DNA of 64,000 nucleotides from Escherichia phage CJY920, in the sequence record PQ349265.1. One strand, 5' to 3'. Position numbers and translations under genes: made by a program. Below are positions 3,293 to 38,688 of the stretch, in pieces (the stretch's first letter is position 1; each line of letters starts with the position of its first letter). Under the pieces are notes generated by a model that had not been told where the DNA came from, made no database searches, and saw nothing but the letters and a program-made list of their open reading frames with translations.

Positions 3293-3547
3293 ATGATGCT
3301 AGTTAATAGAGAATATCAGTTTAAATCAGAAGAAGATTTGGAAAAATTCGCAAGTGGTTGTGAACTGAATAGACGCACAGCTAAAGTCATAGGATTAAAA
3401 CCCTTTACAGTTCTAGATTGTGAAGTTTCTAAATTCCGCAGAGGGTGTTCTATTAGCGGTCATGCTCTGGTTGATGGGAACACATTTTTCTTTGTTTTTA
3501 GCGTCAGAGAACTTTTATTGATTAACGAACTTGAGGAAATAAAATAG
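3293..3547 (+). CDS. hypothetical protein
   Basis: 84-aa ORF between promoter and next promoter. Confidence 0.4.
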   Translation: MMLVNREYQFKSEEDLEKFASGCELNRRTAKVIGLKPFTVLDCEVSKFRRGCSISGHALVDGNTFFFVFSVRELLLINELEEIK

Positions 3548-3578
3548 TTTACTTTTGTTAGAAATTGAGATACTATAT
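3547..3578 (+). promoter_or_regulatory. early promoter
   Basis: gtttacttttgttagaaattgagatactatataa. Confidence 0.45.
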
Positions 3579-3604
3579 AAACATAAACTACTGAGGAGAT
3601 TATC

Positions 3605-3898
3605 ATGAAAAAATTTGTTTTTGCTGCAATTTTTGCTTTAGCTTCTTGCGCTGCTCAGCCTGCTATGGCAGGTTATGATAAAGATTTGTGCGAATGGTCT
3701 ATGACTGCAGATCAGACTGAGGTTGAAACTCAGATTGAAGCAGATATTATGAATATCGTTGAGCGTGATCGCCCTGAAATGAAAGCTGAAGTACAAAAAC
3801 AGCTTAAGTCTGGTGGTGTAATGCAGTATAATTATGTTCTGTATTGCGATAAAAACTTCAATAATAAAAATATCATCGCTGAAGTGGTAGGTGAATAA
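3605..3898 (+). CDS. sp: Spackle-like periplasmic protein, 97 aa, with signal peptide
   Basis: N-terminal signal peptide MKKFVFAAIFALASCAAQPAMA; length and position as T4 sp (61.3). Confidence 0.55.
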   Translation: MKKFVFAAIFALASCAAQPAMAGYDKDLCEWSMTADQTEVETQIEADIMNIVERDRPEMKAEVQKQLKSGGVMQYNYVLYCDKNFNNKNIIAEVVGE

Positions 3899-10351: not shown

Positions 10352-10512
10352 ACAGAGATATGACGTTAGAAGAGGCCAAGGCTAAAGCAAATGAAGCATT
10401 GGATTTGCTTCTTAAAATTGGCAGTAAAATGATGGAAGAAAATGAGAAATATATCCAGGAAAACAAAATTCCTGACGGCCCATTAGTAGGCAAGAGGAAA
10501 TCGCATGATTGA
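10348..10512 (+). CDS. hypothetical protein, 54 aa
   Basis: ATG overlapping previous stop (ATGA); not in ORF table. Confidence 0.3.
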
Positions 10513-10974
10513 AGTAGCAAAACATTATTCAATAGAATTTATGTCTAAAGAAGGTAAATCAGTAAATACACTTGATAAAAAGTGCTCATTAATTATTCCT
10601 TTAGCAGAAAATCCGGTATTTTAATTAAAGATATAAAAGAAAGAAAATATCCAGAAAATGTTATTCTAATTATAAAGCATACTGAAGATATTTTGCAGAA
10701 TACTGATTCACCATTTTCTTCTTCTGAAGATTTAACTATTAAAGGCTATAAAAGAGCTCATGAATATGGTCTTTTTGACCTGTTTGAAGACGATAAAGTT
10801 AAATTAGCGAGTCAACCTTTTAAAAGTAAAACATTCATTATTGAAGATATTAAAGATATAAATGCATTCGTTAAGATGGTCTGGGCTCATTTTGATGTTG
10901 GACTACGCTGGAGAATGTCCGAAGAAGAAAGAAAGATTATTGAAGCTAATCGTCAATTTGGTTTTTATCGCTAG
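10505..10974 (+). CDS. hypothetical protein apparently interrupted by a -1 frameshift near 10577-10582
   Basis: 39-codon ATG-initiated ORF (10505..10624) overlaps a 130-codon ORF lacking ATG/SD (10582..10974). Confidence 0.35.
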
Positions 10975-11234: not shown

Positions 11235-11859
11235 ATGATTATTAATCCTGCAGATGTTGAACAGTTATCTATAAAAGCTGAAAGTGTCGATTTTCAATAT
11301 GATATGTATAAAAAGGTCTGTGAAAAATTTACTGACTTTGAACAGTTCAGTTCTTTGGCAATGTATGGAAGCCAAAAAGAATGAAGCTCTTCATCGGCAG
11401 TTGAATAAAATCATTAAAAAGCATTTAACTGAATCACCTTATCAGTTATATCGTGGTATATCAAAATCGACAAAAGAGCTCATTAAAGATTTACAAGTTG
11501 GAGAAGTGTTTTCAACGAACAGGGTAGATTCATTTACTACTAGTTTGCACACAGCGTGCGGTTTTTCTTATGTTGAGTATTTCACTGAAATAATATTTCG
11601 CTTAAAAACTGACAAAGCTTTTAATTATTCTGACCATATCAGCGATATTATACTTTCTTCTCCTAACACTGAGTTTAAGTATACATATGAAGATACTGAT
11701 GGATTAGATTCAGAACGTACTGATAACTTAATGATGATTGTGCGTGAACAAGAATGGATGATTCCAATTGGAAAGTATAAAATAACTTCTATTTCAAAAG
11801 AAAAATTACACGATTCATTTGGAACATTTAAAGTGTATGATATTGAGGTAGTTGAATGA
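11235..11859 (+). CDS. modB: ModB ADP-ribosyltransferase, reading frame interrupted by +1 frameshift near 11350-11357
   Basis: R (LYRG), S-x-S and E-x-E (EQEWMIP) ART motifs; N-terminal 41 codons are in a different frame and resemble ModA N-terminus. Confidence 0.6.
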
Positions 11860-15451: not shown

Positions 15452-16134
15452 TGTTTGATTTTATTATAGATTTTGAAACAATGGGAAGCGGTGAAAAGGC
15501 AGCTGTTATTGATTTGGCTGTTATTGCCTTTGACCCTAATCCAGAAGTAGTTGAAACATTTGATGAATTAGTTTCGCGCGGCATTAAAATCAAATTTGAT
15601 TTAAAAAGCCAAAAAGGACACCGTCTTTTTACTAAAAGCACTATCGAATGGTGGAAAAATCAGTCTCCTGAAGCTCGAAAAAATATTGCACCATCAGATG
15701 AAGATGTAAGCACCATCGATGGTATTGCAAAATTTAATGATTACATCAATGCGCATAATATCGATCCTTGGAAATCTCAGGGCTGGTGCCGTGGAATGTC
15801 GTTTGATTTTCCAATTTTAGTCGATCTCATTCGCGATATTCAACGTCTTAATGGCGTTTCTGAGAATGAACTTGACACGTTTAAGTTAGAACCATGTAAA
15901 TTCTGGAATCAGCGTGATATTCGTACCAGAATTGAAGCACTTCTGCTTGTTCGTGATATGACCACATGTCCTCTTCCAAAGGGAACTTTAGATGGGTTCG
16001 TTGCACATGATTCTATTCATGACTGTGCGAAAGACATCCTGATGATGAAGTATGCTTTGCGATATGCTATGGGTCTTGAAGATGCTCCGTCAGAGGAAGA
16101 GTGCGATCCTCTGTCTCTTCCAACAAAACGATAA
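15451..16134 (+). CDS. dexA: DexA exonuclease A (DnaQ/DEDD-like), 227 aa
   Basis: N-terminal DFET exonuclease motif; length as T4 DexA. Confidence 0.85.
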   Translation: MFDFIIDFETMGSGEKAAVIDLAVIAFDPNPEVVETFDELVSRGIKIKFDLKSQKGHRLFTKSTIEWWKNQSPEARKNIAPSDEDVSTIDGIAKFNDYINAHNIDPWKSQGWCRGMSFDFPILVDLIRDIQRLNGVSENELDTFKLEPCKFWNQRDIRTRIEALLLVRDMTTCPLPKGTLDGFVAHDSIHDCAKDILMMKYALRYAMGLEDAPSEEECDPLSLPTKR

Positions 16135-18826: not shown

Positions 18827-19003
18827 ATGCCAATGTATGATTATAAATGCCAATCCGAAGATTGCGGGCATGAATATGAAAAAATTAAAAAGATTTCTGA
18901 ACGAGAAAATGATGTTTGCCCTAAATGTCATCGTTTGTCTACTCGTCGGCCTTCTGCTCCTAAGCATGTGAATGGTGGATTTTACGACTTACTTAAAGAG
19001 TGA
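18827..19003 (+). CDS. small zinc-ribbon protein (CxxC...CxxC, FmdB-like), 58 aa
   Basis: YKCQSEDCGHEYE...CPKCH motif; not in ORF table (<60 aa). Confidence 0.45.
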   Translation: MPMYDYKCQSEDCGHEYEKIKKISERENDVCPKCHRLSTRRPSAPKHVNGGFYDLLKE

Positions 19004-19377
19004 TTATGTTTAAAATCGGTAAGAAATATCGTGTTCGCGAAGGTGAAGAAAAGAAATATCTACTTTCTTCTATTTATAGGAATGGTTCTATTAATGCCGT
19101 AATATCTACAAGTGAATTTATCGTTGAAGATATGAAAGGTAATAATGTTACAATGATTAGTACATCATCTGGAAATGATGGAAAAATTCTTCACAGTTTT
19201 CAGAGTAATGTTCTAATTTATGATGAAGAATTTGACTTCTTCGAAGAAGTTACAGAAGATTTTGATTTTGAATGCACTATCACTATGAAATCTGGTGACC
19301 CTCTTTCTTTTACAGTTAAAGATGAAAGAAGTCGCTTGAGAATTATTAGTCTCCTTCAAGCCATTAAATTTGAGTGA
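19000..19377 (+). CDS. hypothetical protein, 125 aa
   Basis: ORF from table. Confidence 0.45.
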   Translation: MIMFKIGKKYRVREGEEKKYLLSSIYRNGSINAVISTSEFIVEDMKGNNVTMISTSSGNDGKILHSFQSNVLIYDEEFDFFEEVTEDFDFECTITMKSGDPLSFTVKDERSRLRIISLLQAIKFE

Positions 19378-19381
19378 AATT

Positions 19382-19644
19382 ATGAAATATGTTAATCGTT
19401 CTATCGCGGCATTAGTATTAGCAGTATATCTTTAGTAGGATGTACTGATGCTGATAATGCAACCAAAGTTTTGTCTTCAAGCGGGTTTACTAATATTGAA
19501 ATCACTGGATACAATTGGTTTGGTTGCTCTGAAAATGATTTCCAACACACTGGATTTCGTGCTATTGGACCTACCGGGCAGAAAGTAGAAGGAACAGTAT
19601 GTTCTGGGCTGTTCTTTAAGGATTCAACTATTCGTTTTAAATAA
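19382..19644 (+). pseudogene. lipoprotein gene interrupted by a frameshift (signal peptide in one frame, lipobox and mature part in -1 frame)
   Basis: MKYVNRSIAALVLAVYL* (19382..19435) then -1 frame ...ISLVGCTDADNATKV... to 19644. Confidence 0.5.
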
Positions 19645-19668
19645 AAGGCCTTCGGGCCTTTAGCTTTA
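19645..19668 (+). terminator. rho-independent terminator-like hairpin
   Basis: aaggccttcgggcctt (UUCG loop) followed by T-rich tract. Confidence 0.5.
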
Positions 19669-19710
19669 TGATTACCGGAGTATAATATTCCCGAAACCAA
19701 ACGAGGATAA

Positions 19711-21264
19711 GTGATGATTAAGAATGAAATTAAAATTCTGAGCGATATTGAACATATCAAAAAGCGTAGCGGCATGTATATTGGCTCTTCTGCTAATGAA
19801 ATGCATGAGCGCTTTCTGTTTGGTAAATGGGAAAGTGTTCAGTATGTACCTGGTCTTGTTAAGCTTATTGATGAAATTATCGATAACTCAGTAGATGAAG
19901 GTATTCGTACTAAGTTTAAATTCGCAAATAAAATTAGTGTTACTATTAAAAACAATCAAGTAACAGTTGAAGATAACGGTCGCGGTATTCCACAGGCGAT
20001 GGTTAAAACACCTACTGGTGAAGAAATTCCTGGTCCTGTTGCTGCATGGACTATTCCAAAAGCAGGTGGTAACTTTGGTGATGATAAAGAACGCGTCACT
20101 GGCGGTATGAATGGTGTTGGTTCTAGTTTGACAAACATTTTTTCTGTGATGTTTGTCGGTGAAACTGGTGATGGTCAAAATAATATTGTAGTTCGTTGTT
20201 CAAATGGCATGGAAAATAAATCATGGGAAACTATTCCAGGAAAATGGAAAGGAACTCGTGTTACTTTCATTCCTGATTTTATGTCATTTGAAACTAATGA
20301 GCTGTCCCAAGTTTATCTTGACATTACACTAGATCGTCTCCAGACACTTGCAGTAGTTTATCCTGATATTCAATTTACCTTTAATGGTAAAAAGGTTCAG
20401 GGCAATTTTAAGAAATATGCACGCCAATATGATGAGCATGCTATCGTTCAAGAACAAGAAAATTGCTCTATTGCGGTTGGTCGTTCACCGGATGGTTTTC
20501 GTCAATTAACTTATGTGAATAACATTCACACTAAGAATGGTGGCCATCACATTGACTGTGTTATGGATGATATTTGTGAAGACCTTATTCCACAAATCAA
20601 ACGTAAGTTCAAAATTGATGTGACTAAAGCACGCGTTAAAGAATGTTTGACTATCGTTATGTTTGTCCGTGATATGAAAAACATGCGATTTGATTCTCAA
20701 ACTAAAGAGCGTTTGACTTCTCCATTTGGTGAAATCCGTAGTCATATTCAACTTGATGCTAAAAAGATTTCACGTGCTATTCTAAATAATGAAGCAATTC
20801 TAATGCCGATTATTGAAGCTGCTTTGGCTCGTAAATTGGCGGCAGAAAAAGCAGCAGAAACTAAAGCAGCTAAAAAGGCTTCTAAAGCTAAGGTTCATAA
20901 ACATATTAAAGCGAATCTTTGTGGTAAAGATGCTGATACTACTCTTTTCTTGACTGAGGGTGATTCGGCTATCGGATATCTTATTGATGTTCGTGATAAA
21001 GAACTTCACGGTGGTTATCCATTACGTGGTAAAGTTCTCAACAGTTGGGGTATGTCATATGCTGACATACTTAAAAACAAAGAACTGTTTGATATTTGCG
21101 CAATCACTGGATTAGTTCTCGGTGAAAAGGCGTTTGAAGAAAAAGAAGATGGCGAGTGGTTTACTTTCGAACTAAATGGCGATACAATTATCGTAAATGA
21201 AAATGATGAAGTACAGATTAATGGTAAATGGATAACAGTAGGTGAATTACGAAAAAATCTATAA
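19711..21264 (+). CDS. 39: gp39 DNA topoisomerase II large subunit (GyrB-like ATPase)
   Basis: GHKL ATPase motifs (EIIDNSVDE, GLHG-like), Toprim; ends without the C-terminal part encoded by gene 60. Confidence 0.93.
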   Translation: MMIKNEIKILSDIEHIKKRSGMYIGSSANEMHERFLFGKWESVQYVPGLVKLIDEIIDNSVDEGIRTKFKFANKISVTIKNNQVTVEDNGRGIPQAMVKTPTGEEIPGPVAAWTIPKAGGNFGDDKERVTGGMNGVGSSLTNIFSVMFVGETGDGQNNIVVRCSNGMENKSWETIPGKWKGTRVTFIPDFMSFETNELSQVYLDITLDRLQTLAVVYPDIQFTFNGKKVQGNFKKYARQYDEHAIVQEQENCSIAVGRSPDGFRQLTYVNNIHTKNGGHHIDCVMDDICEDLIPQIKRKFKIDVTKARVKECLTIVMFVRDMKNMRFDSQTKERLTSPFGEIRSHIQLDAKKISRAILNNEAILMPIIEAALARKLAAEKAAETKAAKKASKAKVHKHIKANLCGKDADTTLFLTEGDSAIGYLIDVRDKELHGGYPLRGKVLNSWGMSYADILKNKELFDICAITGLVLGEKAFEEKEDGEWFTFELNGDTIIVNENDEVQINGKWITVGELRKNL

Positions 21265-22060
21265 TGACTTAATAGTGCGGGGTAAAACCCGCGTTTCTAA
21301 ATTTAAGGGTGAAATTCATCATATCCTTCCAAGATCAATGGGAGGTTCTGATGATAAAGAAAATTTGGTGAAACTGACTTTTCGTGAACATTTTTTAGCA
21401 CATTTTCTACTATATAAAATTCATCGTAATCGTGAAATGGCATATGCGATGAATAGAATGTTAAACACTGAAAAATATTTACGTTCTAGTAAATTATATG
21501 AAATTGCTAGAATTTACCATCAAAGAGCAGTATCTGAATGGTCAAAAAACTTTATGAAAGATAAAGTTTTAATGAGAAGTATTAAATCGGGTAAATGCGC
21601 CTTATTAATTAAAGGATCATTTAACCCAAAGGAATGGTGCGGTGTTAATAAAGGTGTTAAGCTTCCTGGAATTAAAGGCATGACATGCTTTAAAAATGAA
21701 AAAGGCGAAGTTTTTCGTCTTCATGTTAATGATCCACGCATTAAAGCTGAAAAATTAGTTGGTATTGGAAATACTGTTGCTGCTACTGCAAAAGCAGCTG
21801 AACTTGAAAAAGCGAAACCATGGTATAATAAATCAGCGACAAATCCAGAGGCTGTAAAATTAATACCAAATTTATATGAATGGTACGTCACGAAATATGA
21901 CCCCGATCATTATAAACGAACGGGAGTTGCTAAATGGAAATCAGTTAATAATATAACTGTGAATTCAAAATTATTCGGCCGAGCATTTAATGAATTTAAA
22001 CGCGGTTGGATTCCTGATGAAAAGTTCTATGAGGTGTATAATGAAATTTGTAAAAATTGA
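21242..22060 (+). CDS. mobA: HNH homing endonuclease (MobA-like) inserted between genes 39 and 60
   Basis: HNH motif EIHHILPRSMGGSDDKENLVKLTFREHFLAH; overlaps 39 stop and 60 start. Confidence 0.7.
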   Translation: MNYEKIYNDLIVRGKTRVSKFKGEIHHILPRSMGGSDDKENLVKLTFREHFLAHFLLYKIHRNREMAYAMNRMLNTEKYLRSSKLYEIARIYHQRAVSEWSKNFMKDKVLMRSIKSGKCALLIKGSFNPKEWCGVNKGVKLPGIKGMTCFKNEKGEVFRLHVNDPRIKAEKLVGIGNTVAATAKAAELEKAKPWYNKSATNPEAVKLIPNLYEWYVTKYDPDHYKRTGVAKWKSVNNITVNSKLFGRAFNEFKRGWIPDEKFYEVYNEICKN

Positions 22061-22573
22061 TTCTTCTAGCGTTGATATGAAAAAATATAAATTGCAGAAC
22101 AATGTTCGTCGTTCTATTAAATCCTCTTCAATGAACTATGCGAATGTCGCTATTATGACAGACGCAGATCACGATGGATAGCCTTCGGGCTATCTATAGA
22201 AATACCTCATAATTAAGAGATTATTGGATTAGGTTCTATTTATCCTTCTCTGCTTGGATTTTTTAGTAATTGGCCAGAACTGTTTGAGCAAGGACGAATT
22301 CGCTTTGTCAAAACTCCTGTAATCATCGCTCAGGTTGGTAAAAAACAAGAATGGTTTTATACAGTCGCTGAATATGAGAGTGCTAAAGATGCTCTACCTA
22401 AACATAGTATTCGATACATCAAGGGATTGGGCTCACTTCAGCGGGATGAATATAAAGAAATGATTCAAAACCCTGTGTACGACGTAGTTAAACTTCCTGA
22501 AAATTGGAAAGAACTATTTGAAATGCTCATGGGTAACGACCCTGAACTCCGTAAAGATTGGATGCTAGGATAA
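22041..22573 (+). CDS. 60: gp60 topoisomerase II subunit, translated across a 50-nt bypass (codons 1-46 = 22041..22178, resumes 22229..22573; 160 aa)
   Basis: ANVAIMTDADHDG then UAG; downstream frame LGSIYPSLLGFFSNWPELF... continues the protein; identical layout to T4 gene 60. Confidence 0.9.
22179..22228 (+). other. gene 60 translational bypass (hop) coding gap, 50 nt
   Basis: Take-off GGA 22176-22178, UAG stop, hairpin ggatagccttcgggctatc, landing GGA 22226-22228. Confidence 0.9.
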
Positions 22574-23370
22574 TGAATTATCGTAAAATTTATGATAAAC
22601 TTATCGCTGCGGCTAAAAACCGCAGCACTATTCCTAATTATACTGAAACTCACCATATTTTGCCTAAATCTATGGGCGGGAGTAATGCTAAATCAAATCT
22701 AGTTAAAATGACCCCTAGAGAGCATTTTATCGCCCATTTATTGCTTTATAAAATTCATAAGAACCGTTCTATGCTTATGGCTATTAGAGCTTTTTACATG
22801 GGAGCTAGAAATTCTAGAGATTATGATTGGCTTAAACAAGAATTCTCTAAAGAGCACTCTAGATTTATGAAAGAATGGATTGCTAAAAATGGCAACCCAT
22901 TTAAAGGTAAAAAACATACTAAAGCAACAAGAGAATTAATGTCACATATTGCTTCACAACGTATAGGCGAATTAAATCCATTTTATGGTAAAACTCATAC
23001 GCAAGAAGCAATAGATAAAATAATACAGGCTAACAAGTTATCTTGGGAGAATGGGCGAAAAGCACCTGTAAAAACAAAAGAACACCAGGATAAAATAACT
23101 AAATCAAGAATGGAAACATTTAAAACAAAAGGATTTAAACCATACACTCCTAGGTCAGAAGAAACTAAAGCTAAGACTAGAGAGTTGTATAAATCTAAAT
23201 ATGAAAGAAGGCCTATAAGAATCACAAGTGTAAAAACAGGCGAAACTATTGATTTTAACTATCTTTATGAATTAAGGGAGTATTTAGATATAGGGTCTTC
23301 TAATATATTGAAAGCATTAAATAATCCTAACAGAACCTGCAAAGGTTATAAAATGTGTTGGATGTCCTAA
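22573..23370 (+). CDS. second HNH homing endonuclease with NUMOD3-like repeats, 265 aa
   Basis: ETHHILPKSMGGSNAKSNLVKMTPREHFIAH; repeats NPFKGKKHTKATRELMS / NPFYGKTHTQEAIDKI; ATG overlaps gene 60 stop. Confidence 0.7.
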   Translation: MNYRKIYDKLIAAAKNRSTIPNYTETHHILPKSMGGSNAKSNLVKMTPREHFIAHLLLYKIHKNRSMLMAIRAFYMGARNSRDYDWLKQEFSKEHSRFMKEWIAKNGNPFKGKKHTKATRELMSHIASQRIGELNPFYGKTHTQEAIDKIIQANKLSWENGRKAPVKTKEHQDKITKSRMETFKTKGFKPYTPRSEETKAKTRELYKSKYERRPIRITSVKTGETIDFNYLYELREYLDIGSSNILKALNNPNRTCKGYKMCWMS

Positions 23371-23755: not shown

Positions 23756-25933
23756 ATGATTATCACCACTGAAAAAGAAACAATTCTTGGTAATGGTTCT
23801 AAATCAAAAGCATTTAGCATCACAGCATCTCCTAAAGTATTTAAAATTCTGTCATCTGATTTGTATACAAACAAGATTCGCGCAGTAGTTCGTGAATTGA
23901 TTACCAACATGATTGATGCCCATGCTCTTAATGGAAATCCTGAAAAATTTATCATTCAAGTTCCTGGACGTTTAGATCCACGATTTGTTTGCCGAGATTT
24001 TGGTCCGGGTATGAGCGATTTTGATATTCAAGGTGATGATAATTCTCCTGGGTTGTATAATTCATACTTTAGTTCATCTAAGGCTGAATCTAACGATTTC
24101 ATTGGTGGATTTGGTTTAGGTTCTAAATCTCCGTTTAGTTATACTGATACATTTAGTATTACTTCATATCATAAAGGCGAAATTCGTGGTTATGTAGCTT
24201 ACATGGATGGTGATGGTCCACAGATTAAACCTACATTCGTAAAAGAAATGGGTCCAAATGATAAAACTGGTATTGAAATCGTAGTTCCAGTTGAAGAAAA
24301 AGATTTTAGAAACTTTGCTTATGAAGTTTCTTATATCATGCGACCATTCAAAGATTTGGCTATCATTAATGGTCTTGACCGTGAAATTGATTATTTTCCG
24401 GATTTTGATGACTACTACGGCGTAAATCCAGAAAGATACTGGCCAGATCGTGGTGGATTGTATGCTATCTATGGTGGTATTGTTTATCCTATTGATGGTG
24501 TTATTAGAGACCGTAACTGGTTAAGCATTCGCAATGAAGTGAATTACATTAAGTTTCCAATGGGTTCACTTGATATTGCTCCATCACGTGAGGCTCTTTC
24601 ACTAGATGATCGTACTCGTAAAAATATTATTGAGCGTGTTAAAGAGCTTAGTGAGAAAGCATTTAATGAAGATGTAAAACGATTTAAAGAATCTACATCT
24701 CCTCGTCATACATACCGTGAATTGATGAAGATGGGATATTCTGCTCGAGATTATATGATTAGTAATTCGGTCAAATTCACGACTAAAAATCTGTCATATA
24801 AGAAGATGCAAAGCATGTTTGAACCTGACAGTAAGTTATGCAATGCAGGGGTTGTGTATGAAGTAAATCTTGACCCTCGACTGAAGCGCATTAAGCAAAG
24901 CCATGAAACTTCAGCCGTTGCGTCAAGCTATCGTCTGTTTGGTATTAATACGACAAAAATTAATATTGTTATTGATAATACTAAAAATCGTGTTAATATT
25001 GTCCGTGGATTAGCACGTGCATTAGATGATAGCGAATTTAATAACACCTTAAATATTCATCACAATGAGCGTCTTCTGTTTATTAATCCGGAAGTAGAAT
25101 CACAGATTGATTTACTCCCTGATATTATGGCAATGTTTGAAAGTGATGAAGTTAACATTCATTATTTGTCAGAAATTGAAGCTTTAGTTAAAAGTTATAT
25201 TCCAAAGGCAGTAAAAAGTACAGCTCCTCGTCCTAAAACTGCCACTGCATTTAAGTTTGAAATTAAAGACGGGCGTTGGGAAAAAGAGGAATTGTTTACG
25301 CTCACATCAGAAGCAGATGAAATTACTGGTTATGTAGCATACATGCATCGTTCTGATATTTTCTCTATAGATGGTACTACATCGCTTTGTCATCCATCTA
25401 CGAATATTTTGATTCGTATGGCTAATCTTATTGGCATTAATGAATTTTATGTTATTCGTCCGCTTTTGCAGAAAAAGGTAAAAGAACTTGGTCAGTGCCA
25501 ATGTATTTTTGAAACTTTGCGTGATTTATATGTAGATGCTTTTGATGATGTAGATTATGATAAGTATGTAGGTTATTCAAGTTCAGCTAAACGATATATT
25601 GATAAAATTATCAAGTATCCTGAGTTAGATTTTATGATGAAGTACTTCAGTGTAGATGAAGTTTCTGAAGAATATACACGACTCGCTAATATGGTTAGTT
25701 CATTACAGGGTGTATATTTCAACGGTGGAAAAGATACCATCGGTCATGACATCTGGACAGTAACTAATCTTTTTGATGTATTATCAAATAATGCTTCAAA
25801 AAACAGTGATAAAATGGTTGCTGAGTTTACCAAGAAATTCCGTATTGTTTCCGACTTCATCGGTTATCGCAATTCTTTAAGTGATGATGAAGTTTCCCAA
25901 ATCGCTAAAACTATGAAGGCCCTTGCGGCCTAA
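23756..25933 (+). CDS. rIIA: RIIA protein, 725 aa
   Basis: Length 725 aa, N-terminal GHKL-like region; followed by rIIB. Confidence 0.9.
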
Positions 25934-35451: not shown

Positions 35452-38400
35452 TTATGCTAAACGAACGATATAGTTAAAAGCAATGTTTTTAACCGTGTTT
35501 TCTGTATTACCTGTACTATTTACAGTGATAGTATGACCGTGCGAACCAATTGCTACCGTGTGGGTATGGGCACCGATACCTACAGTATGGGTATGAGCAC
35601 CTATACCTACAGTATGAGCATGGTTACCGGTGGTGTTAGTTACACCTGTCCAAGTTCTTGATGCGTGGAAATCAACGGGAGCGCCATAAGTGAAGTTGGA
35701 ACCTGTGAAGCCGTGTGAAGCCTGACTACTACCCATCACGAACGCTCCACTCGCGGTGTAGAATGAACTATTATCACTTCTGAACCAACCAAACACACCA
35801 GAGATTTCCATGTTACCTCTATCGTGAGCGTGGTTTCCAGTAGTATTGGTCGCTTTAGTACCATAATCAAATGATGAAGAGGTTTTAGTACCATAATCAA
35901 AACTTGATGTGGTTTTAGTACCCAAATCAGTATTAGATGCAGAAGCACTATGATTATGAGACTTAATACCATCAGCTTCAGCACTCAACACTGCGCGACC
36001 GCTCGGTTTACCTTTGATAGTTTGCCCACGCATATCTGGAATAACACCACTAGGATATGCAACAGCTAACTTAGGATATGCAGACTTATCAAAGGTTTGG
36101 CCTTCCATTAAAGCAAACCCGTCAGGAACTGAATCGCTCGGCCACGGAATTGGAGCACCTACCGGATAAGGTATCTGAGCATCGGAATACATCTTATACA
36201 CTTGTCCAAGTACATGGTCTGCAGGTAATTCTTCTACCGGTGATTGAGATGCACCATTAAGACCGATTACCGAAATATTGCTAGTATTTTCTGTAGCATC
36301 ATATTCAACCAATAAAGATTGGGCAAAAGAGCCCATGTATATGTATACATCATAATCATTACCAGATGTATTCACTGTAGCAATGTTTGACGGGCTGGTA
36401 CTAGTGCTAGACCACAGCGCCGCATTAATAGATTTAGGATTATTGTTACCAGTTCTAAGAACAATTTCACTTATGGATGCTTGTTCAGGAGAATTAGCAT
36501 TATAACCATTCCCGCCGATAATTTTGAAACGCGCGGTAGATGTAGATTGTGGCATTGTTACAGTAGCAAATTTGTACCAGTACCAGCCTACTACTTTATC
36601 AACACCTGACCATGTGCCAACATTAACTTTGCGGTTTAATGTGGTATTCAAGTTAGCAAAGTTTCCTGAACCACCAGTGATATTACCGTCAGTTCCTAGT
36701 TTGGTATTTCCAACTTTAAGAGGCTTAGTAATATCGACAGTATCAGAGTTTAATGCAATGCCATGGGCGTAGGTGTAATTATGCATACGAACAATGTTTC
36801 CACCATCACCAATACCTACATACCATTTTGTAACATCTGCTTTGCGTCCTTGGATGAAGTTAGAAGACTCTTGTGTTGGAGCATTTATTCTAATAGCATC
36901 GGCGGCAGTATTAACTGTTATACGCTGAGATGCTGTAGTACCTGATGTATCTACTTTAAACTTGCCCACGCCAATATCAACAACGTGTTCCATAGAAACT
37001 GCGCCGGTGCCTAACTCAATACTAAACGGGCGAAGTGGACCGATATCGCCATGTTTACCTTCACCGTAAGCAGTTGGAATAATATGAAGACTGCCTTCTG
37101 AACGTCTAAAAATGGCTCCATAATCTGCGTTCCAAATGCGAAGACCATTTACAGCATTTGTCGCGATTTCACCGGCTGCGCTGATTGTACCGTCAAATGT
37201 AGCATTTTTTACTACTGTAAAGTTTTCATTAACAATCTGGGTGCCATTTATAACCGATTCGACTTTACCCGCAGTTGTTCGTTGAATATAGCTCATCCAA
37301 CTAGTTGCGTCAGAAATTTCCATGACATTTTTACGGGTGCCTTCACTAGGATTAGTAAAGGTATTACCCCAAACTTTGATTTCCACATTATCAACTGAAC
37401 TATAACCGCTTGTATTTCCTTTGAACAACAGCGTAGAAGCATTATTACGACCATCAATATTAACCGAACCACCAATAACGTCAATATTGCCTGGAGTAAC
37501 TAACAAACCGCCATGAGTATTAATGTTTGTGGTACCTTTACCACGGAAATAGTGATGATAATTACCGCCTTGATAATATCCTAAAAGAGTCTGACCGTCA
37601 CCATACGCGTTATTATCATGATAAGTGACAACCGTCGCCAAAGCATAGTTTTCCGACGGAGGAGTGGTTAAATCGGTACCGTTTACAGAATAACCCATAA
37701 CCATTTTTCTAAGACTGGTGGTTTCTGCCGGGCCACTCAGGAAAGTTCTTGTGCCGTTGTTTACACTAAAGAAATAACCATCTTGGTGCCATTGTAAGCC
37801 GGTATCATTATCGCCAAGAGCAATTGAAGCTGTTCCTAATTCAGAATATCCTTTAGGGCCGTGTGGAAGACCTACAGAAACAGAATGACCTGCTTTCAAT
37901 CCACCAGACCAAGTAAATGACCAAAGATAGGCGTCTAATCCATCGCCGGCATACCAGGTTATTCCATCATTATCTTTAACTTCATGGAATATACCCGCAC
38001 CTACGGCATTACGCATAACACGAAGATGATTAATAGCGGTTTCGCTTTCTGCCAATGGGGTGTTATTTGCTAATGAATAGATATCATAATCGCCTGTCTT
38101 CTTCCCATTTGTAATAACTTTATCGGTCAGAATTTGTGGAGACGAAATAGATTTCCATGCTGATACTTCAGGTGAAGTAAATAGGCCACTGCCTGAAAAT
38201 GCATAAGTGCTTTCGTTACCAGCGGCGTAGTCTTGAACGCGGATATTAACTACTTGTGTAGTTAATCCATCATTAGCCGGGGCATAAATGATTCCACGTT
38301 CGCGACTATTGCCATCGAAAAAACGAACATGCGCTGTACCTGAACTTTTTGTAATAAGTTCTCCGCCTTCGGTCATAATCTGCCCGGCGGCAATAATATC

Positions 38401-38688
38401 GCGAGTTACTCGAGCAATACCAGTTAAATTAAAATTACCTGTCTGAGTGAAGGTGCCATTTAAACTATAATCACCAGTTTGATTATAGTTTCCTATATGA
38501 ATAACATTCCCGTCAATACTACCGCCCTTAGCAAAACCAAGATCAATGATATTTCCTTGGTCGTCTTTAGTAAAAAGTACGCGGTCTTTTAAGTTTATAG
38601 CCAATTCACCTTCGGCTAATACTGAAGCGGCAGGACGTGCTCCTGCAGTTTTGCTTCTTTTAAATTGTATTTGTTTTAAAGTAGCCAT
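35452..38688 (-). CDS. 37: gp37 long tail fibre distal subunit, 1078 aa
   Basis: N-terminus [21 protein letters not shown]; C-terminal His boxes [23 protein letters not shown]. Confidence 0.9.

Follow-up and report, generated by a model that had tools for sequence, protein, structure and literature searches.

Gene 39.1, a putative lipoprotein gene directly upstream of gene 39, is broken by a two-base insertion in the deposited sequence of a T4-like Escherichia phage

A broken copy of gene 39.1 was found in the window, by which we mean the whole 64,000-nucleotide stretch of Escherichia phage CJY920 that was analysed (sequence record PQ349265.1). From its sequence and its neighbours, window 19382-19644 was identified as the orthologue of T4 gene 39.1, lying directly 5' of gene 39 (topoisomerase II large subunit). 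In the relatives this place is occupied by an intact 86-codon prolipoprotein gene (MKYVNRSIAALVLAVSLVGC, followed by TDAD...). In the window a TA duplication (GTATC to GTATATC, 19426-19429) was observed, and the frame was lost after codon 15. Judged from the sequence, this member of the gp39.1 family has either become a pseudogene or been recorded with an error in the window. We lean, if only slightly, to the view that it is a gene with a genuine, very recent and non-programmed loss-of-function mutation, which would be dispensable in the growth conditions of the isolate or of the stock. The features discussed below are collected in Table 1.

Table 1. Features of the 39.1 locus, of its neighbourhood and of the two other frameshifted genes in the window
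Feature	Position	Strand	Description	Support
Homologue of a 156-codon early ORF	10505-10974		Corresponds to LH2 CDS 15503-15973; one A lost near 10617, GGATAT to GGTAT	
modB	11235-11859		ADP-ribosyltransferase (207 residues in LH2); extra T near 11347, CAGTCAG to CAGTTCAG	
Upstream ORF	19000..19377	+	123-125 codons, intact; precedes 39.1 in the early gene string	98% identical to LH2 CDS 23796-24167
39.1, 5' fragment	19382..19438	+	ATG, signal-peptide n- and h-regions (MKYVNRSIAALVLAV), out-of-frame YL, tandem UAG UAG	
Lesion	19426..19429	+	TATA, against TA in the relatives; the extra TA dinucleotide shifts the downstream sequence to the -1 frame	Alignments
39.1, 3' part	19429..19644	+	-1 frame: Ser16, lipobox L-V-G-C (19432-19443), 66-residue mature domain with two conserved Cys	
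Hairpin	19644..19661	+	AAAGGCC-UUCG-GGCCUUU; overlaps the 39.1 stop codon	7-bp stem, UUCG loop, -10.7 kcal/mol, z = -2.3
Gene 39	19711..21264	+	Topoisomerase II large subunit; intact, unaffected by the 39.1 frameshift	99.6% identical to LH2
HNH homing-endonuclease ORF	21242-22060		272 codons	
Gene 60-like segment	22250-22564			
Second HNH endonuclease ORF	22558-23370		270 codons; absent from LH2	

Inspection of the window showed that it is a Tequatrovirus (T4-like) genome, and many T4-like coliphages were 95-98.6% identical to it. Its nearest sequenced relatives diverge by 1.4-4%, and no sequence identical to the window was found in the collections searched. As in T4-like phages, 39.1 is located between the string of goF, 39.2 and the 123-codon ORF and gene 39; it comes after goF/39.2 and immediately before gene 39, with the UUCG hairpin next. 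The TGA stop of the upstream ORF lies 4 nt 5' of the 39.1 ATG, and the protein encoded by this ORF has an exact copy in phage N2 and belongs to a cluster (90% identity) with 413 members. The same place, from the goF/39.2 string to gene 39, is held by gp39.1 of resequenced T4 (HM137666 T4T, KJ477684 and MT984581), gp39.1 of JS98, the 'lipoprotein' of Klebsiella phage KP185 and PHROG 902. The flanks and the hairpin are shared by the window and the T4-like gp39.1 loci, and the protein obtained after removal of the extra TA was 98-100% identical to theirs. In contrast to 39.1 of T4, the window copy carries the 2-bp insertion after codon 15, with which the protein cannot be made. A further difference is that the window, like Shfl2, NBG2 and LH2, has the 123-codon ORF between 39.2 and 39.1, whereas T4 does not.

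The initial annotation had described a lipoprotein gene directly 5' of gene 39 that is split by a frameshift, and the intact 86-codon orthologues present in hundreds of T4-like phages bear this out. When the frames were re-read, the signal peptide beginning at 19382 was again seen to meet a stop, and the -1 frame to carry the lipobox and the mature part to 19644. The ATG at 19382 opens MKYVNRSIAALVLAVYL, which is followed by TAG at 19433-35 and TAG at 19436-38, so that translation from this ATG yields 17 residues. The -1 frame reads ...SISLVGCTDADNATKVLSSSGFTNIEITGYNWFGCSENDFQHTGFRAIGPTGQKVEGTVCSGLFFKDSTIRFK and ends at the TAA stop at 19642-44. Alignment to Shfl2, NBG2, T4_ev240 and Shinka showed GCAGTATCTTTAG in the relatives and GCAGTATATCTTTAG in the window at the lesion site. 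A break at about 19426 had been proposed; the position was correct, but the cause is the two-base TA insertion at 19426-19429 and not a lost base. Within the window, no in-frame ATG or GTG was found for the lipobox and the mature domain. The uninterrupted ORF of about 82-90 codons that characterizes the gp39.1 family is thus missing from this copy. Ribosomes starting at the 39.1 ATG would release a 17-residue peptide at UAG UAG, and the lipobox and the mature domain would be cut off from the start codon and the signal peptide, so that the lipoprotein would not be made.

The coding potential that had been ascribed to the locus was confirmed. The repaired 39.1, in which the extra TA is removed, matched PHROG 902 (function unknown) over residues 1-86 with E = 9.5e-37; 49 gp39.1 homologues were obtained at E <=1e-14, two of which are named lipoprotein by UniRef or NCBI. 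The 84-codon open stretch of 39.1 has a chance probability of ~0.001 at the base composition of the window (35% G+C). No significant match of the repaired protein was found in Pfam or NCBIfam. When gp39.1 of LH2 was used in tblastn, it matched the window in two frames with 94% identity.

A terminator hairpin had also been placed after 39.1. The hairpin itself was recovered, with its annotation as a terminator in NBG2, and its sequence was identical among the window, T4, Shfl2 and a contig from SRR9866674; a strict consensus terminator scan did not call it, because its T-run is short. In our view it probably terminates the early transcription unit, in which 39.1 comes last. A TATAAT hexamer was observed at 19682-19687, 5' of gene 39. 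Gene 39 is intact and lies behind the hairpin and this hexamer, from which we infer a separate promoter for it; a polar effect of the break in 39.1 would not be expected.

Comparison with orthologues, which the initial annotation had called for, turned up intact lipoproteins with a signal peptide and an L-V/I-G-C lipobox in the relatives. In Shfl2, NBG2, Shinka, LH2 and T4_ev240, 39.1 is one 86-codon ORF, MKY(V/I)NRSIAALVLAVSLVGCTDAD...RFK, and the resequenced T4T, 'T4 wild' and MT984581 also have an 86-codon ORF, with the lipobox LIGC. After deletion of the extra TA, the protein of the window was identical to those of NBG2, Shinka, LH2 and T4_ev240, and the DNA differed from theirs at 6-10 synonymous and 0 non-synonymous sites. 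Because only synonymous differences were left once the TA was removed, 39.1 is judged from these alignments to have been under purifying selection up to the insertion.

The allele with the insertion was found only in the window. A 40-mer spanning the insertion junction, which cannot seed a megablast match where the insertion is missing, gave 0 matches in 50,697 phage records. The intact 38-mer, used as positive control, was found in 187 phage records, 157 of them at 100% identity. The 40-mer had no match in complete E. coli genomes either, and an exact junction 28-mer had none in IMG/VR, metagenome contigs or GTDB genome contigs. Since the broken gene shows no further decay and the allele was matched in none of these collections, the lesion would be either very recent or an artefact. 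Other disruptions of 39.1 were observed in contigs of other assemblies. In a 23-kb contig from SRR10816070 (1501-1671), a nonsense change GGA to TGA was found at position 57, and the same 56-residue product was found at the end of a contig in SRR20814907, where the stop is unverifiable. In the contig from SRR9866674 (1125-1328), 1 nt was deleted in an A-run. The independent disruptions in the SRR10816070 and SRR9866674 contigs suggest that 39.1 may be easily lost. Like T4, the SRR9866674 contig was without the 123-codon ORF between 39.2 and 39.1.

It was considered whether programmed recoding, by ribosomal frameshifting (-1 or +2), hopping or slippage during transcription, could join the two frames, so that some full-length lipoprotein would be made. 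The circumstantial grounds for this reading are that T4-type phages use translational bypassing in gene 60, which is only a few kilobases away, and that the inserted bases give rise to UAU CUU UAG, a sequence similar to the prfB +1 shift site UAU CUU UGA. A +1 slip at CUU U in the window, however, would give SRMY and then a stop, which is the wrong frame for the lipoprotein. Between the last stop of the -1 frame (19393-95) and the stop of the 0 frame (19433-35), that is in 19396-19435, there was neither an X XXY YYZ heptamer nor a run longer than TTT. The 70 nt at 19436-19505 were calculated to fold with -6.9 kcal/mol, which is less stable than shuffled sequences (z = +1.47). A programmed event would moreover be conserved, but no relative has the two-frame arrangement: against 187 phage records with the single-frame version, the junction occurs in 0 of 50,697. 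Compared with the sites of prfB (+1), gene 60 (bypass) and dnaX (-1), 39.1 shares two frames for one protein and a prfB-like local sequence, but it lacks a slippery site, a stimulatory structure and conservation, and its +1 frame is the wrong one. Programmed recoding of 39.1 was rejected for want of a slippery heptamer, a homopolymer run, a workable prfB-like +1 site, downstream structure and conservation. Because slippery site, homopolymer and structure are all missing and the break is not shared by relatives, we consider this reading extremely unlikely. Equally improbable in our estimate is that the frames would be re-joined at GUA-UAU-CUU-UAG-UAG by a non-canonical event (-1 or +2), giving a low, regulated level of the lipoprotein; if this occurred, it would be a second recoding event within a few kilobases of the gene 60 bypass.

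The downstream part might instead be expressed alone, giving a 57-residue protein that stays in the cytoplasm and has a function of its own. TTG at 19471 is the first possible start for the 3' part and opens a 57-codon ORF (19471-19644), and the T4 reference annotates a gp39.1 of 65 residues that likewise has no signal. No Shine-Dalgarno sequence, however, was found in front of this TTG. Among 153 members of the family, the domain is nearly always joined to a membrane anchor, be it a lipoprotein signal or one of another kind, and the family keeps a Cys pair that is suited to the periplasm. The T4 annotation, for its part, rests on a sequence that was not reproduced in three resequenced T4 genomes. 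Separate expression was therefore considered very unlikely.

Inspection of the T4 reference (NC_000866 / AF158101, locus 3399-3660), in which gp39.1 is annotated with 65 residues and without the signal peptide, showed that its 39.1 is also broken, with the signal peptide (MKYISRSIAALVLAVSLINSTDAD and then a stop) apart from the mature domain. The lesion differs from that of the window, as it consists of the lipobox LINS and a 1-nt T insertion. This version was found only in four old records (NC_000866, AF158101 and the partial records X06220 and M89919). As three resequenced T4 genomes lack the break and it is confined to these four records, it probably goes back to an old error in the sequence and is still being carried along in annotation. 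Gene 39.2 also differs between the T4 reference and resequenced T4 (45 and 58 codons, respectively). Users of NC_000866 would miss gp39.1 as an envelope protein, while resequenced T4 encodes a predicted 86-residue lipoprotein.

The T4 case is a precedent at this very locus for a sequencing or assembly artefact in the window, in which case 39.1 of the phage would be intact, and the extra TA and two nearby frameshifts would be found only in the deposited sequence. Each annotated protein of LH2 was compared with the window, and only three genes were found to change frame. Besides 39.1, these were modB, whose first 37 residues are read in one frame and the remainder in another, and the homologue of the 156-codon early ORF; in a search of the 50,697 phage records made without a positive control, the frameshift alleles of both had no match. 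The three frameshifts (39.1, ~10617 and ~11347) thus lie within 9 kb and are all without match in the phage collection. The restriction of the TA allele to the window, among all collections searched, and the recovery of the relatives' protein on removal of TA, with synonymous differences only and no further decay of the broken gene, also point to an artefact. On the other hand, errors of pyrosequencing, Ion Torrent and nanopore sequencing usually occur in long homopolymers, whereas the three indels of the window (an added TA, a T that became TT and one lost A) are outside such runs. About 100 other genes, among them all the essential ones and the long gp34, rIIA, nrdA, gp41 and gp39, are free of frameshifts, and the independent disruptions of 39.1 in other contigs likewise speak for a real mutation. 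Unique alleles would be expected anyway, because the nearest sequenced relatives differ by 1.4-4%. We therefore give an artefact something short of an even chance, a serious contender to a genuine recent mutation.

All three frameshifts are in accessory early genes. The distribution over essential and accessory genes is a weak test of mutation against error, because ~30% of the coding sequence of the window is essential by a rough estimate, and three random errors would all miss it ~1/3 of the time. In the annotation of this genome, 39.1, modB and the 156-codon ORF near 10.6 kb should be marked as frameshifted. By itself the finding at 39.1 is minor: disabling indels without a match elsewhere are routine when the gene is accessory and dispensable, and this one may be missing from the phage itself. 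If the break is real, the phage would be a natural 39.1 knock-out, useful for finding the role of the protein.

The repaired gp39.1 has the sequence features of a lipoprotein precursor, namely a basic n-region with K2 and R6, a hydrophobic core IAALVLAVS and the lipobox LVGC, which fits the pattern [LVI][ASTVI][GAS]C; in the window, signal and lipobox are in different frames. Cys20, Cys 48 and Cys 73, together with the motifs TGY, TGF, GTVCSG and TIRF, were >=90% conserved among 45 homologues. A profile search against 1.84 billion representative proteins gave 2,217 clusters (50% identity) at E <=0.001, of which 1,105 were at E <=1e-10, and almost all of the 150 listed matches to the domain had 80-130 residues. 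By a simple rule of our own, applied to 153 members of the wider family, 114 were found to have a strict lipobox, and many of the others had a looser lipobox or were anchored in the membrane by other means; 128 had two or more Cys in the core. The residue at +2 after the lipobox Cys was Thr in 95 of these 114 members and Asp in 0; it is Thr in the window copy. In a few members the N-terminus is instead pilin-like or transmembrane, and P0105 has two copies of the domain. In the proteins with the gp39.1 domain that were scanned, no Pfam match to the domain was found. gp39.1 is a very large family that is known but unstudied; no paper on this gene was found in a literature search that covered gp39.1, T4 lipoproteins and superinfection exclusion.

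From these features, gp39.1 is probably produced early in infection as a periplasmic lipoprotein anchored in the outer membrane. By the standard lipoprotein pathway, it would be exported, lipidated and delivered by Lol to the inner face of the outer membrane. Sequence inspection showed no Asp at +2, as in Lol-sorted outer-membrane lipoproteins, and a disulfide between the two Cys of the mature domain would be expected in the periplasm. The place of 39.1 in the early gene string suggests that the protein would act on the envelope soon after infection begins. T5 Llp and Cor of phi80/N15 are of comparable size (mature ~60-70 residues), also lack Asp at +2 and are expressed early or in lysogeny. 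Neither homology nor a shared fold with T5 Llp or Cor was found for gp39.1, and a fold search gave generic matches only. By analogy, our best guess is that gp39.1 may serve in receptor masking, superinfection exclusion or another envelope-protective job; the narrower proposal of receptor masking or superinfection exclusion is perhaps correct, with a chance well below even. The biology of T5 Llp behind the analogy is taken from a preprint (bioRxiv 10.64898/2026.03.26.714494).

Several other differences from LH2 and T4-like features were observed in the window. As in T4, the gene for the large topoisomerase subunit is divided, with gene 39 (516 codons), then the HNH homing-endonuclease ORF and then the gene 60-like segment. 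In the region of the second HNH endonuclease, the window is ~890 bp longer than LH2. Exact copies of the window's gp39, of its second HNH endonuclease and of the frameshift fragments did not turn up in a collection of 15 billion proteins. The distal tail-fibre region (36175-38688 and beyond) is sharply unlike that of LH2, and gp37 is only ~36% identical; the 263-residue gp38-type adhesin of LH2 has no counterpart in the window. The divergence of gp37 and the adhesin without counterpart suggest that the tail-fibre region of the window may be a different receptor-binding module from that of LH2.
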